Below, piece after piece: positions 55,071 to 62,222 of a stretch of 64,000 nt of DNA. The stretch comes from Chloroflexota bacterium. GTDB lineage: Bacteria; Chloroflexota; UBA11872. The DNA is taken from positions 310,501 to 374,500 of the forward strand of contig OY764080.1 of assembly GCA_963667925.1 (NCBI GenBank), given 5' to 3'. Position numbers and translations under genes: made by a program. How positions within the stretch are numbered: the stretch's first letter is position 1; the number at the start of each line of letters is the position of its first letter. A model generated the notes under the pieces. That model was not told the origin of the DNA, searched no databases, and worked only from the letters and a program-made list of their open reading frames with translations.

Positions 55071-55994
55071 GTGGGTGACGGCTTGATCGGCCGGTTGGTC
55101 CGCGCTCTGCGGCTGGATCCGACGCTCTACCGCGAAGTCGCGGCACCAGGTGCGAGCACGGAGCAGGCTGCGCTTGTACTGATGCTTGGGGCGATCGGGT
55201 TCGGGTTTGCTCACTCGGCAGACAGGATTGCAGGCTGGCTGAATTTTGGATGGTTGGGGATCACGCGCGTTGACACTAATGCGTGGATCGTTGGTCAGTT
55301 TGAGAACGGCCGCATCGTGACGCACGCGCTCGGTCTCATGGCAGCTTGGCCGGTCTGGGCCGTCTGTCTGTACCTAATCGGCAAGCATATGCGGCACCCG
55401 GATCGACCGGCACCGGGCTTTGGACAAGTCGCACGTGCTATAGCGTTCGCACAGGTACCGGGACTGGCAGGCATTGTCCTACTCATACCAGCCACCATCG
55501 CCTCAGTCTTTCTGGTTCCGGACGTCTCGCTTCCACATCTACCGGGTGCAGCTAGTGAAATCATCGATCCACTCTCACTGCCTTGGCTCGGATTGCTGGT
55601 AAATGTTGGGACAGGCGTGCTTCTGGTCTGGGTCTTTATTGGGACCTTCCTGGCGCTGCGTGAAGCCGTGGGGCTAAGTCAGGGCCAGGCGTTGAGCGCA
55701 ATTGCCCTTGCAGCCGTGTCAATAACCGTACTAGCAATTGTTGCCTTGACTCTTATCAGCATTGTTGCTGCCGCCGCCGGCGTGATACCCACCGCCTTTG
55801 GGCCCGACTCACCCGGCTTTGTTCGAACTGAAATCTCCTCACTTGGTCTTGATCGAACTGACATCGCCGCGCTGGTCTTGGGGGAAGCCCCGAGTCGGGT
55901 AGCACTAGCGTTCGACTTCAATCTTGGCTGGTACTTCACTCGTGAACTCATCAGTCGACTTGACGACGTACTCGTGCTCGTGGTCGCGACGTAG
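55071..55994 (+). CDS. Yip1-like multi-pass membrane protein (array copy a)
   Basis: '[13 protein letters not shown]', 'VARAIAFAQ', 'GTFLALREAVGLS', 'FDFNLG'. Confidence 0.75.
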   Translation: MGDGLIGRLVRALRLDPTLYREVAAPGASTEQAALVLMLGAIGFGFAHSADRIAGWLNFGWLGITRVDTNAWIVGQFENGRIVTHALGLMAAWPVWAVCLYLIGKHMRHPDRPAPGFGQVARAIAFAQVPGLAGIVLLIPATIASVFLVPDVSLPHLPGAASEIIDPLSLPWLGLLVNVGTGVLLVWVFIGTFLALREAVGLSQGQALSAIALAAVSITVLAIVALTLISIVAAAAGVIPTAFGPDSPGFVRTEISSLGLDRTDIAALVLGEAPSRVALAFDFNLGWYFTRELISRLDDVLVLVVAT

Positions 55995-56629
55995 TGCGTG
56001 GCGACAAGAGGAAGACGCCAGGCGTGCAAACGAGCGTATTCGGGAGGCTCGCGAGGCGGATGCGCGATGCGGCGCTCCTGGCACATCCTTTGTACCGGGA
56101 AGTAGCGAGTTCCGGCAGGGGGAATCGCGAAGCAGCGGTGGTTGTTCTGGTTACCGGATTGGGTTTCGGCGTCGCGAGTTTCTTGGGCTGGGCGCTGGCA
56201 GGTGCGCCAATCAAAGGGATCGTGGTGGGGGTCGTACTGGAGCCAATTGTGACGCTGATGGCATGGCTTGGCGGATCCGTGGCCGCCTGGGTGGTTGGCA
56301 GCCGCCTGGCGGCACCAGGCGGCAAGGCCGGACGGTTCTGGCCGGTGGCTCGAGCATTGGCGTACGCACAGACCCCGAATCTGGCTGGTGTACTCGTGGT
56401 CCTCCCCGCTCCGTACACGGGCGGCGTGTGGTTGATAGTGCGGTTCTGGATGTTGGCGGCAAGTTCAACCGCCATTCGCGAGGCGCTGGGGCTGAGCGGG
56501 GGACGGGTGCTTGTGACGCTGGTCGCGACCGCCGTGGTCTACGCGGCGCTGCTCATTGGTCTCTTTCAAGTTCTGAGTTTCGTCGGCCTTGGCGGCGCGG
56601 CGAGCATTCCTGGCATCGTGGCGGACTAA
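55994..56629 (+). CDS. Yip1-like multi-pass membrane protein (array copy b)
   Basis: 'LYREV', 'VARALAYAQTP', 'REALGLS'; lacks the FDFNLG tail. Confidence 0.75.
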   Translation: MRGDKRKTPGVQTSVFGRLARRMRDAALLAHPLYREVASSGRGNREAAVVVLVTGLGFGVASFLGWALAGAPIKGIVVGVVLEPIVTLMAWLGGSVAAWVVGSRLAAPGGKAGRFWPVARALAYAQTPNLAGVLVVLPAPYTGGVWLIVRFWMLAASSTAIREALGLSGGRVLVTLVATAVVYAALLIGLFQVLSFVGLGGAASIPGIVAD

Positions 56630-56668
56630 TGCGGCGAGTTCGCGGCGCAACGACTCTCGGCAAGGGTA

Positions 56669-57565
56669 GTGCCGAACTCCCTGGGAGTAGTTGCTGTGGC
56701 GCCTAGTGCCGGTGTCGGTCTCGTCGCACGCATTGTGCGCGCTCTGCGACTTGATCCAACGCTCTACCGGGAAGTGACTTCACCAGACGCTGGCAACCGG
56801 CAGGCGGTCGTGATGATCTTGATCACGTCCGTAATTTGGGGTTTCCAAACGATCTTTGTAAAGAGTGCGTCAGTCTTGCAGCAGTCGACCCGTGGGGCCG
56901 AGGATCTGGACTTAGGTCTGCTGGTAGCACTCTTCGCGGTACCCGCGATTGCGCAGATTGCGTCGTGGCTGATCTGGGCGTTCGGGCTCTGGATCATCGC
57001 CACTCGCTGGGTGCCACGGGAGCACGAGGTGCCCTACTTCGGCCAAGTCGCCCGTGCACTGGCATTCGCGCAGGCACCCATCGTCTTCGCAGTCGTTATC
57101 GCCGTCCTAGCGACACTATTCGTTGGTGTCGTGTCCGCGCTCGTGCTCATTCTCATTCCGGAGGAAATCCGGGAGGGCTATCCGCAGCTGGTCGTGTTGG
57201 GGAATAGCGCTGCCGTGTGGGGGATTGGCGGTTTGGTCACGGCCTGGGTGCTCGTGGGAACGTTCGTGGCCACTCGCGAGGCGCTGAGACTCAGCAATGG
57301 CCGAACGTTGGTGGCATTACTGACTGTGAATCTAGTCGGTGCGACACTTCTTGCAGTAATTGTCGTTGTTCTCAGCGGCGTAGCCGGACGAGAAGCAGTG
57401 GGTCTAATGGAGGACTGGGTGGGATTTCGGGACGACAATCCATCTGCAGTGGATGTCGCGTACAGGCTTGACTTTAACTTTGGATTTCTAGGTCTGAGCG
57501 ACCGTACTCTCTACTACTTATCCAGATCACTCTTGCATCCGTTTGCCGGAGTAAGTGGGGCGTAG
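56669..57565 (+). CDS. Yip1-like multi-pass membrane protein (array copy c)
   Basis: '[13 protein letters not shown]', 'VARALAFAQAP', 'GTFVATREALRLSNGRTL', 'LDFNFG'. Confidence 0.75.
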   Translation: MPNSLGVVAVAPSAGVGLVARIVRALRLDPTLYREVTSPDAGNRQAVVMILITSVIWGFQTIFVKSASVLQQSTRGAEDLDLGLLVALFAVPAIAQIASWLIWAFGLWIIATRWVPREHEVPYFGQVARALAFAQAPIVFAVVIAVLATLFVGVVSALVLILIPEEIREGYPQLVVLGNSAAVWGIGGLVTAWVLVGTFVATREALRLSNGRTLVALLTVNLVGATLLAVIVVVLSGVAGREAVGLMEDWVGFRDDNPSAVDVAYRLDFNFGFLGLSDRTLYYLSRSLLHPFAGVSGA

Positions 57566-57748
57566 AGCAACTGGATGGGCATGACCCGGTTGAATTGTTG
57601 CACCATATAGTAGTCCGCGACCGAACGGTAGTCAGCCTCAGGTTTGCCACTCCTATCAAGAAATCAAATGCGAAGCAGGCCAAAAGGCTATGCAAGGCGC
57701 AACCGGAAATCGTGCGCAAGCCGTCCGAAAGCTACGCGGAAGCCGAGG

Positions 57749-61224: not shown

Positions 61225-61300
61225 TGGAGACCTTTGCGTAATTCGTTTCGGATCAGGAGGCCCGGCGCCTATCCGGGCGCGTGCAACGTTGGGCGGCGCC

Positions 61301-61325
61301 TGGATTCCCGCCTTCGAGGGAATGG
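61301..61325. repeat. REP-like palindrome ATTCCC-N8-GGGAAT
   Basis: TGGATTCCCGCCTTCGAGGGAATG; single copy in this window. Confidence 0.6.
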
Positions 61326-61553
61326 GGGAGGGTAACGCAACAGTCTCGCGAGGGAGCACCGGCCCCGTCGCCCGATCGATTCGGGACGACTTCGGGACGA
61401 AACCGCAGCGACCGTCGAGTCGATCCCCGGCGCGTAGCCGCGTAAACGCGGGCCGCGCGCCGTGAATGAGCGCTGCTCACGGCGGGATTGCCGCGCACGC
61501 CCTTGCGTGACAGGCTGACAGCCAAAGGCGGCACGGAAGCGAGGCCGGCAGCC

Positions 61554-62222
61554 ATGGGTAACGGATTCATCAGCCGGTTGCTCCGTGCCCTGCGGTTGGA
61601 CGCGAGCCTCTACCGCGAGGTATCGGCCCCTGACGGCAATACGCGGCAGGCGGCGCTGGTGGTTTTACTCACGGCCGCGGCCGCCGGCACCGAGGGCTTG
61701 TGGGTGAGTGCCAGCGGTGCTGGACTCATCGCTGTTACGCACATGCTCGCTTGGCCGGTCTGGGCTGCGGGGCTCTGGCTGGTTGGCGTGCGACTTAGAA
61801 CACCATCTGGCGAGACGCCGGGACTCCAGCAAGTCGCGCGCGCAATTGCGTTCGCACAGGCGCCGGGCGTGTTCTTCGCGCTCGGCCCCATCCTCCTATG
61901 GAGTTCCGGGCCTCTCGCGGGCACGGTTCGGTCTTTGGTCTTCGTCTGGGTGCTGGTCGGGACTCTTCTCGCCGTTCGCGAGTCGTTGGGGCTGAGCAAC
62001 GGTCGAACTCTCGGCGCGTTGGTCGCTGTAAGTGCAGTCATCGCGGCGCTGTTGGGGCCCGTGATTACCTTCCTAACCTTATGGGTTCTTTTGCCTCACG
62101 TGACGCTGGGATCCATAGTCGCGCTGATCTGGTATGGGGTGTTTGATTTCAACCTCGGTCTGGGTCTCATGAACGCGGTGATGCGCCTCGTCCTGCCAGT
62201 CGCGTTCGAGGTCATCGCGTAG
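61554..62222 (+). CDS. Yip1-like multi-pass membrane protein (array copy f)
   Basis: 'RALRLDASLYREV', 'VARAIAFAQAP', '[12 protein letters not shown]', 'FDFNLGL'; leader homologous to that of copy d. Confidence 0.78.
   Translation: MGNGFISRLLRALRLDASLYREVSAPDGNTRQAALVVLLTAAAAGTEGLWVSASGAGLIAVTHMLAWPVWAAGLWLVGVRLRTPSGETPGLQQVARAIAFAQAPGVFFALGPILLWSSGPLAGTVRSLVFVWVLVGTLLAVRESLGLSNGRTLGALVAVSAVIAALLGPVITFLTLWVLLPHVTLGSIVALIWYGVFDFNLGLGLMNAVMRLVLPVAFEVIA

Follow-up and report, generated by a model that had tools for sequence, protein, structure and literature searches.

An array of Yip1-like membrane protein cassettes in a hypervariable chromosomal slot of Chloroflexota

Six genes and the family to which they belong

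The DNA considered here is a stretch of 64,000 nucleotides (nt) from a Chloroflexota bacterium (assembly GCA_963667925.1, contig OY764080.1, positions 310,501 to 374,500), referred to below as the window, to which all positions refer unless another locus is named. Between 55071 and 62222 it holds six open reading frames (ORFs) in one orientation, here called a to f, that encode related multi-pass membrane proteins (Table 1). An earlier note, made from the letters of the DNA, had read them as co-oriented paralogs with unlike segments between their helices, and both points were confirmed: a profile of the family scores 220-370 bits against each of the six copies, a homology well above chance, and in a MAFFT alignment, of which 27 columns are invariant, the inter-helix segments differ in length and in sequence. 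Amino acid (aa) identity is 27-44% between pairs of copies and 32-40% to copy a. The motif VARxxA(F/Y)AQxP, already described as common to the six, is present in all of them, as is RExLxLSxGxxL, while (F/L)DFN(L/F)G was correctly assigned to five copies (a, c, d, e and f). RALxLDxxLYREV, which had been attributed to all six, is found in the same five, b carrying a divergent version. For b and c the start is uncertain, the candidates being 55994, 56024 and 56060 for b, and 56669 and 56696 for c; the starts of e and f are the ATGs at 59043 and 61554 rather than 58905 and 61488, judging by the register with the other copies and the gene calls in relatives.

Table 1. Coordinates of the array genes, their leaders, the border remnants and the adjoining genes in the window
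Feature	Position	Strand	Description
Class IV aminotransferase gene, left core flank	54085..55008	+	Pfam Aminotran_4 1.7e-34; synteny
Leader of module a-b-c	55013..55070	+	core TGTCAGACTGAC at 55024-55035; leader alignment and motif search
Gene a	55071..55994	+	307 aa; first of the a-b-c triad; Yip1-like, five transmembrane helices, long outer loops and C tail
Gene b	55994..56629	+	211 aa; short middle member of the triad, without FDFNLG tail; Yip1 25.3 bits
Gene c	56669..57565	+	298 aa; third member of the triad
Lactonase 3' remnant	57749..58055	-	307 nt, 95% identical to 62341-62647; first 73 nt are the left repeat copy
Aminotransferase 3' remnant	58049..58164	+	84% identical to 54898-55013; joined to the lactonase remnant
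Leader of module d-e	58165..58222	+	core TGCCAGACTGAC at 58177-58188; leader alignment and motif search
Gene d	58223..59002	+	259 aa; first of the d-e dyad
Gene e	59043..59924	+	293 aa; second of the d-e dyad
Second lactonase 3' remnant	60110..60182	-	73 nt, right repeat copy; adjoins the nuclease stop
NucS_C-type PD-(D/E)xK nuclease gene	60190..61224	-	344 aa; Pfam NucS_C 5.8e-10, above cut-off
Nuclease-to-Yip intergenic region	61225..61553	+	conserved; ends in the f leader, core TGACAGGCTGAC at 61508-61519
Gene f	61554..62222	+	222 aa; single-gene module, minimal family scaffold
7-bladed beta-propeller lactonase gene, right core flank	62335..63402	-	Pfam Lactonase 3.2e-122; synteny
DUF4276 gene	63539..63997	-	first of the second variable slot, past the lactonase; Pfam DUF4276 7.9e-12; PADLOC HEC-01B 1.2e-16

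None of the six window proteins reaches the Pfam gathering score for Yip1 (PF04893) of 28.6 bits: b scores 25.3, c 24.9 and f 21.6-21.9, and a, d and e give no match. The earlier label of Yip1-like did not hold by this direct route and stands by way of the family profile and its relatives, which show homology to bona fide Yip1 members. The profile retrieves proteins of ~180 aa at 1e-14 to 1e-31; nine of ten profile matches scanned with Pfam were above the Yip1 cut-off (29-52 bits on PF04893), eight of the nine being 173-218 aa long; 32 of 77 family members match Yip1 (best 5.4e-9); and cassette J of a related locus (L023, see below) reaches 38.9 bits. Because these profile relatives and family members match Pfam Yip1, the six genes belong to a branch of the Yip1 family that is divergent, expanded and lineage-restricted. 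No function is established for the prokaryotic proteins of this family, widespread as they are, and no paper came out of a full-text literature search combining Yip1 with sponge and symbiont.

Searched with the profile, 5.8 billion proteins yielded 110 relatives, all unnamed or hypothetical. In an exhaustive profile search of 1.84 billion representatives the number of clusters was 30 at E<=1e-30, rising to 330 at E<=1e-10 and to 1400 at E<=1e-3. When genomes were scanned at one per species, 21 loci came to light, all in metagenome-assembled genomes (MAGs), 20 of them labelled Chloroflexota and one Tectimicrobiota; many of these MAGs carry sponge-derived names. In all, 30 family loci were fetched (21 genome records and nine metagenome contigs, one labelled IrcVar) and are given as L001 etc., public sequencing runs being given as X1 etc. 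Distant relatives have one short Yip1 gene between ribonucleotide reductase and PEPCK, and this is probably the ancestral state.

AlphaFold2 models of f and a are all-helical and confident (f: pLDDT, a predicted local distance difference test score, 85.3 and predicted template modelling score, pTM, 0.83; a: pLDDT 83.6), and with the charge pattern of 77 sequences they predict inner-membrane proteins of five transmembrane (TM) helices with a cytoplasmic N-terminus. In these sequences the N-terminus, the TM2-3 loop (with VARxxAFAQxP) and the TM4-5 loop (with RExLGLSNGR) have 13-15 lysine plus arginine residues per 100 aa. The TM1-2 loop, the TM3-4 loop and the C tail, which are also the segments that vary in length (16-46, 9-42 and 14-75 aa respectively), have 3.6-4.6. 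By the positive-inside rule the conserved, length-invariant parts are therefore predicted to be cytoplasmic and the length-variable segments external, so that the outward loops needed for the surface family proposed earlier are borne out as far as prediction goes. The five-helix core, the cytoplasmic N-terminus and the profile relationship are shared with the Yip1 domain family, including the eukaryotic Yip1/Yif1 (YIPF) proteins; the added outer loops and the FDFNLG C tail set the window proteins apart from their ~180-aa prokaryotic relatives, and the array has none of the Golgi or Rab context of the eukaryotic ones. When PDB and BFVD were searched with the f model by Foldseek, nothing matched at E<=0.001, and a profile search of PDB sequences gave no structural relative.

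When the family genes of related loci were clustered they fell into recurrent types. Orthologs of a are 46-50% identical (78-98% in the closest strains), those of b 56-65%, of c 44-48%, of d 78-84%, of e 80-88% and of f 70-83%, as against ~30-40% between paralogs. Gene order is strict: A is always followed by B and C, D always by a gene of E type (as next to every ortholog of d), and the F and G types occur alone or as F-G. Synonymous sites are saturated between paralogs almost everywhere (proportion of differing synonymous sites, pS, 0.5-0.8), the N-terminal box of a and d being lower (0.33). Homogenisation of the paralogs by gene conversion is ruled out by pS values of 0.5-0.8 nearly throughout, and because that box is the only part with a lower pS, conversion is limited to the leader and the 5' coding box described below. 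The earlier picture of a single diverging paralog series had to be given up. With their stable orthologs and saturated synonymous sites, the six genes make up instead three old, fixed modules: a triad a-b-c, a dyad d-e and the single gene f.

A slot between aminotransferase and lactonase genes

Of the related loci, 17 of the first 21 and also L022, L023, L024 and L026 lie at the chromosomal place of the array, with the gene order DLH (-), AP_endonuc_2, GNAT, Aminotran_4 (+), variable region and Lactonase (-). The flank proteins of related loci are 85-98% identical (aa) to those of the window, the aminotransferase 87-98% across the syntenic loci. Synonymous divergence (dS) of the flanks is only 0.1-0.65 over all slot genomes and the clade is therefore compact. 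At least 17 different slot contents were found over ~20 related genomes, with 1 to 8 family genes per slot; copy number is thus not fixed, in keeping with the diversifying family of the earlier note. The contents include F alone, nuclease-F, nuclease-G, F-G, A2BC2-F, DE'-DE, DE''-DE'-DE, DE-nuclease-G and two tandem triads. The contigs of L021 and L005 seem to overlap in the nuclease gene and, if joined, give eight family genes in the slot and two more past the lactonase. Content varies even between strains with flank dS of 0.1-0.25, and L016 has the closest flanks (dS 0.11-0.24), yet its slot contains the nuclease and G only. Compared with L006, nt identity is 0.9-1.0 in the flanks and 0.4-0.7 in the interior, and the edges are sharp, lying at ~55166 (~100 nt into gene a) and at ~62349, the first step of the comparison to start inside the lactonase gene, where identity is back to 0.9-0.95.

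The slot also receives cargo of other kinds. In L002 two lactonase 3' remnants enclose ~8 kb of unrelated cargo (12832-20776 of that locus), made up of genes for an animal-type haem peroxidase, a P450, a RoxA-like cytochrome c and an OYE flavin oxidoreductase; a full lactonase gene was not seen within this locus. In L026 (8001-10990) the genes for a Yip1-like protein of 414 aa, which has a long extension, and for a leucine-rich-repeat (LRR) protein of 482 aa lie between other cassettes. Because of the metabolic cargo of the one and the LRR cargo of the other the slot is regarded as a general flexible hotspot, and a defence-only island was rejected on the content of L002. A second variable slot, the interval from Lactonase to PEPCK, follows the first and the window ends inside it. 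In the relatives compared for this interval (L005, L012, L023, L024, L026 and L027) it either is empty or contains DUF4276, alone or accompanied by an ABC-type ATPase, or else Yip1-like cassettes (H-I or J).

Each cassette begins with a common leader and ends beside lactonase 3' sequence, which may belong to the intact gene or to a remnant. The leader, of ~45 nt (GTGACAGACTGACCGCCAGAGGCGGCGCGGGAGCGAGGCCGGCGGCCATG), precedes every cassette-first gene in the related loci and is followed by ~100 nt of conserved coding sequence, the 5' box. Written by its core it is TGACAGACTGAC, and in the window the core TG(T/C/A)CAG(A/G)CTGAC stands at 55024, 58177 and 61508, ~45 nt before the starts of a, d and f. 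The homologous leader that had been noticed upstream of these three genes is therefore confirmed and extends to the module-first genes of all related loci. The leader is there irrespective of what precedes it, be this the end of the aminotransferase gene, the 5' region of the nuclease gene or unrelated sequence, and in a motif search of 518 kb of loci 28 of the 31 matches were directly upstream of cassette-first genes. An Rfam scan of 54000-64000 at E<=1 detected no RNA family in leader or array, RNAalifold on 26 leaders gave zero pairs and no consensus structure, no sigma-70 promoter was found, the leader not being one, and terminator-like sites were at chance level. No RNA run with array sequence was identified, the runs that were found showing a flat, DNA-like depth. 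The leader probably sets off every cassette as a unit of transcription.

A third allelic lineage of the triad was seen outside the hotspot in L001, L003 and L004, downstream of IMP dehydrogenase (~5355-7786 in L001). It has the same leader core and unrelated upstream sequence, and the MAGs concerned also hold the hotspot locus with other cassettes.

Turnover by recombination and the mode of selection

Comparison of close relatives has caught the turnover of whole cassettes. The metagenome contig L022 (labelled IrcVar142) is 95.8% identical (nt) to the window over 51238-57821 and is without a 2,361-bp block bearing d-e, which in the window is flanked by a 73-nt direct repeat consisting of the lactonase 3' end (copies at 57749-57821 and 60110-60182). 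To the right of the missing block L022 is only 87.7% identical, and its ancestry there is therefore different. L023 is without both d-e and f, the f module (61506-62327 of the window) having no counterpart. The dominant strain of run X6 carries a-b-c, d-e and the nuclease at ~390x and skips f (joint 61389 to 62328), and run X14 also skips f (contig joint 61485 to 62328). Among the runs with 99% of the sequence (X1, 53500-63500), depth was ~9 over a-b-c and the flanks and ~6 over d-e, the nuclease and f; the drop in X1 weakly suggests one sample in which strains that have d-e, the nuclease and f live alongside strains that do not.

Remnants of the flanking genes recur at the cassette borders as three types of scar. 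Type I, 67-73 nt of the lactonase 3' end at the nuclease stop, was found in the window and in L011, L012, L021, L022 and L023. Type II joins 157 + 35 nt of lactonase to 79 nt of aminotransferase and occurs in L005, L008, L010, L012 and, twice, L018. Type III, ~300 nt of lactonase joined to aminotransferase sequence from 54898, occurs in the window (57749-58164) and in L014. A junction between the 3' ends of the lactonase and the aminotransferase is the expected product of a head-to-tail joining of two inter-flank segments, and the one at 57749-58164 is the scar of two concatenated versions of the locus; a tandem duplication could produce such joining, and so could a circularised fragment of another strain that integrates by a single crossover. 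Gene a is a mosaic when compared with L023, the crossover falling at ~55170-55200, just past the conserved 5' box. Because scars recur by different cassettes, a repeat brackets d-e and a crossover follows the 5' box of a, we infer that the scars, the shared leader and the 5' box act as internal homology arms for the gain, loss and exchange of cassettes.

Pfam scans and precomputed gene calls gave no integrase domain among the genes flanking the slot, and no attC-like inverted repeats were seen at the array, its only inverted repeat being one weak, chance-level pair. The array does not have the features of a diversity-generating retroelement target, there being no near-identical template repeat of any variable segment. 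A reverse transcriptase gene turned up only once in the long ORFs scanned, at 21628-23181; it is of retron-like type and 32 kb distant from the array.

Between close strains the ratio of nonsynonymous to synonymous divergence (dN/dS) of the Yip-like genes is 0.23-0.59, as against 0.05-0.22 for the flanks, and over all orthologs it ranges from 0.2 to 0.6. The values pooled by region are nearly equal (cytoplasmic 0.32, membrane 0.38, external 0.40), and diversifying selection on the loops by point substitution therefore gives no clear signal. The genes d and e are at 0.2-0.4 in all regions; only external parts are outliers, in c (0.76-1.0) and, in the comparison with L009, in f (0.74). The differences between close strains are patchy and the patches carry raised dS (0.43 for a against L023, with flanks at ~0.15), which fits recombination between alleles. 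For b-type genes dS exceeds 1 between triad lineages, compared with 0.3-0.5 for the flanks; these are either old allelic lineages or imports. Since ortholog dN/dS is low and not clearly raised in the outer loops, the diversity of the array appears to arise by cassette gain, loss and exchange through homologous recombination and not by point hypermutation. It is with high confidence, then, that we regard the array as three modules in a hypervariable slot that recombine through flank remnants and the leader box.

Neighbouring genes, possible roles and rival explanations

The nuclease gene that the earlier note had placed within the array was substantiated by its Pfam NucS_C match. Its product also matches PADLOC PDC-S11 at 3.5e-30 over the N-terminal half and is far under the cut-off of NCBIfam NucS. 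The gene goes with the cassettes as a mobile companion. A second nuclease of NucS_C type, ~31% identical to the array copy (PDC-S11 3.2e-27), is encoded at 33980-35023 (-) and adjoins clpX (35066-36343). The defence labels in the neighbourhood, PDC-S11 and HEC-01B, are only candidates, and the support that the context lends to a role in conflict is circumstantial.

The explanation favoured here, which taken as a whole we consider evenly balanced between right and wrong, is as follows. Three self-contained cassettes (a-b-c, d-e and f) are joined end to end in a recombination hotspot between aminotransferase IV and lactonase. The left and right boxes and the lactonase/aminotransferase scars would serve as homology arms, through which RecA-type recombination would add, delete or swap cassettes between strains, so that no integrase would be needed; the array of the window is one of many cassette combinations. 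Selection would act on which cassettes a strain carries, and the likeliest role would be envelope protection or recognition, i.e. phage exclusion or immunity to membrane-acting toxins. Eukaryotic Yip1/Yif1 (YIPF) proteins form alpha/beta complexes. The co-inherited paralogs of the window recall these, and by analogy the triad and the dyad probably form hetero-oligomers as well. That such hetero-oligomeric complexes of the envelope have a protective or recognition role is a tentative proposal, somewhat short of an even chance, drawn from topology, gene-content polymorphism and the neighbouring genes. A bolder version, rather unlikely in our judgement, would see here an integrase-free cassette system by which a clade of sponge-associated Chloroflexota shuffles modules of hetero-oligomeric Yip1-family complexes, the flank-gene remnants, the leader and the 5' box being the portable homology arms. 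The complexes would be an unrecognised class of envelope immunity proteins, for phage exclusion or toxin immunity, in which outward loops confer specificity; if true, this would give prokaryotic Yip1 proteins their first defined role.

Several known systems offer points of comparison. YknW of the Bacillus subtilis YknWXYZ system is a Yip1-family protein tied to the handling of, or protection from, membrane-active peptides. Yip1-family proteins are also found in leaderless and circular bacteriocin clusters, e.g. BawG (PMC11580447, PMC10707071). Proteins of the BawG/YknW type are likewise small with five TM helices; they are encoded by single genes near HlyD/ABC transporter and toxin genes, whereas here there are arrays of multi-gene cassettes without those partners. 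The acquired interbacterial defence clusters of Bacteroidales are strain-variable arrays of protective genes. Orphan immunity gene arrays of polymorphic toxin systems have been reviewed (PMC3482391), and the present array is like them in being a strain-variable tandem array of divergent paralogs gathered by recombination with the cassettes of other strains. It differs from them in having no toxin gene, toxin-derived homology or recombinase, in encoding multi-pass membrane proteins and in using core flank gene remnants and a shared leader as homology arms. Fixed flanks, strain-specific content and candidate defence genes among the cargo are features of flexible islands, integration hotspots and defence islands, from which the slot departs in that one paralogous membrane family dominates, the modules are fixed, mobile-element genes are absent and flank-gene scars mark the borders. 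Ordered, co-oriented and exchangeable cassettes at one site are reminiscent of integrons; the array differs in the lack of an integrase among slot-flanking genes, of attC-like repeats and of a conserved folded element, and in that each cassette has its own leader. We regard the locus as a hotspot of the flexible or defence type that resembles an orphan-immunity array and is built of Yip1-family modules without mobile-element genes.

One slot with dozens of related cassettes gained, lost and exchanged between close strains is a natural experiment on Yip1 proteins, and the triad, dyad and single gene are defined modules for functional work. Conserved cytoplasmic and variable outer faces, with candidate defence neighbours, narrow the plausible roles to envelope-level conflict or recognition. 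The border scars show a cassette array built and reshuffled by ordinary homologous recombination without a dedicated recombinase, and the array bears on how uncultured sponge symbionts keep their strain-level diversity.

A number of observations weigh against a protective envelope role. The six Yip-like proteins match no PADLOC model, the nuclease alone in the array doing so, and of the two neighbouring labels HEC-01 gave no protection when tested and PDCs are candidates only (bioRxiv 10.1101/2024.01.29.577857). No toxin, bacteriocin precursor or ABC/HlyD exporter came out when the array with its flanks was scanned with Pfam and the small ORFs of its gaps were listed (the gaps after c and e have only unconvincing small-peptide ORFs), Pfam scans revealed no integrase in the array, and no relative was found on IMG/VR viral contigs. 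The orientation of the proteins comes from the positive-inside rule and the hetero-oligomers from co-inheritance (A-B-C, D-E), in each case as the sole argument. To these are added the ortholog dN/dS below 1 and not concentrated in the outer loops, the metabolic genes in the slot of L002 and the LRR protein in that of L026, the triads found beside ordinary genes outside the hotspot (L001), and the lone Yip1 gene near PEPCK in distant relatives, which looks like a housekeeping gene.

The last four observations are also those that speak for neutral birth-and-death, in which a housekeeping Yip1-type protein would have been amplified in a recombination-prone slot and gain and loss would be drift without any role in conflict: selection on the orthologs is purifying, a single conserved gene is probably the ancestral state, the slot has taken in unrelated metabolic and LRR cargo, and triads stand at ordinary loci. 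This is somewhat unlikely, since intact multi-gene cassettes with a conserved leader are kept in many combinations and do not decay, deep allelic lineages of the b type persist, content differs between strains with closely similar flanks, and variability is restricted to the predicted outer face.

An orphan immunity or export accessory function, with each cassette neutralising a different bacteriocin-like peptide from sponge neighbours, draws on the recurrence of Yip1-family proteins with five TM helices in bacteriocin clusters, where immunity or transport roles have been proposed (PMC11580447, PMC10707071), and on the typical make-up of orphan immunity genes as accumulating, non-replacing arrays of divergent paralogs. 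This account is improbable: the role in those clusters is itself only proposed, a fixed triad and dyad would be unusual for immunity proteins, and neither the array nor its surroundings have a gene for a precursor peptide, HlyD or an ABC exporter. Less probable again is variation of a surface seen by the sponge host, in which outward loops would affect recognition or evade phagocytosis and cassette sets would fit the host species. Consistent with it are the 20 of 21 genome records that are Chloroflexota, several with sponge-derived bin names, the IrcVar contig, the three ankyrin-repeat genes 4-8 kb upstream, the LRR protein of L026, and the different parts of the array held by runs labelled with different host organisms; short-looped inner-membrane proteins are, however, unlikely to reach a host receptor through the envelope, and the candidate defence genes are closer to the array than the ankyrin genes. 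The model of the earlier note, if read as six paralogs whose outer loops are under ongoing diversifying (frequency-dependent) selection by point substitution, is the least credible of all: the outer segments are indeed the least conserved and most length-variable, with high outliers in c and f and patchy differences between close strains, but the pooled ratios, the uniformly low values of d and e, the raised dS of the patches, which fits allelic recombination, and the age of the paralogs with their stable orthologs all go against it.

Two further observations concern the remainder of the window. The three ankyrin-repeat genes (46996-48201, 48086-49717 and 49995-51110, all -) lie between ribonucleotide reductase (44223-46934) and DLH, and what this position contains also differs in L022, L023 and L024; it looks like another variable slot, one with eukaryote-like proteins. 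The product of the retron-like gene at 21628-23181 (+) is 517 aa long and has, besides a reverse-transcriptase domain, a nuclease domain of Mrr type at its C-terminus, the former matching PADLOC models of retron fusions of reverse transcriptase and effector (best 1.6e-133). It lies in a stretch of low guanine-plus-cytosine content (20001-24000, 0.54-0.57 as against ~0.65 elsewhere), which suggests an acquired retron-like defence gene.

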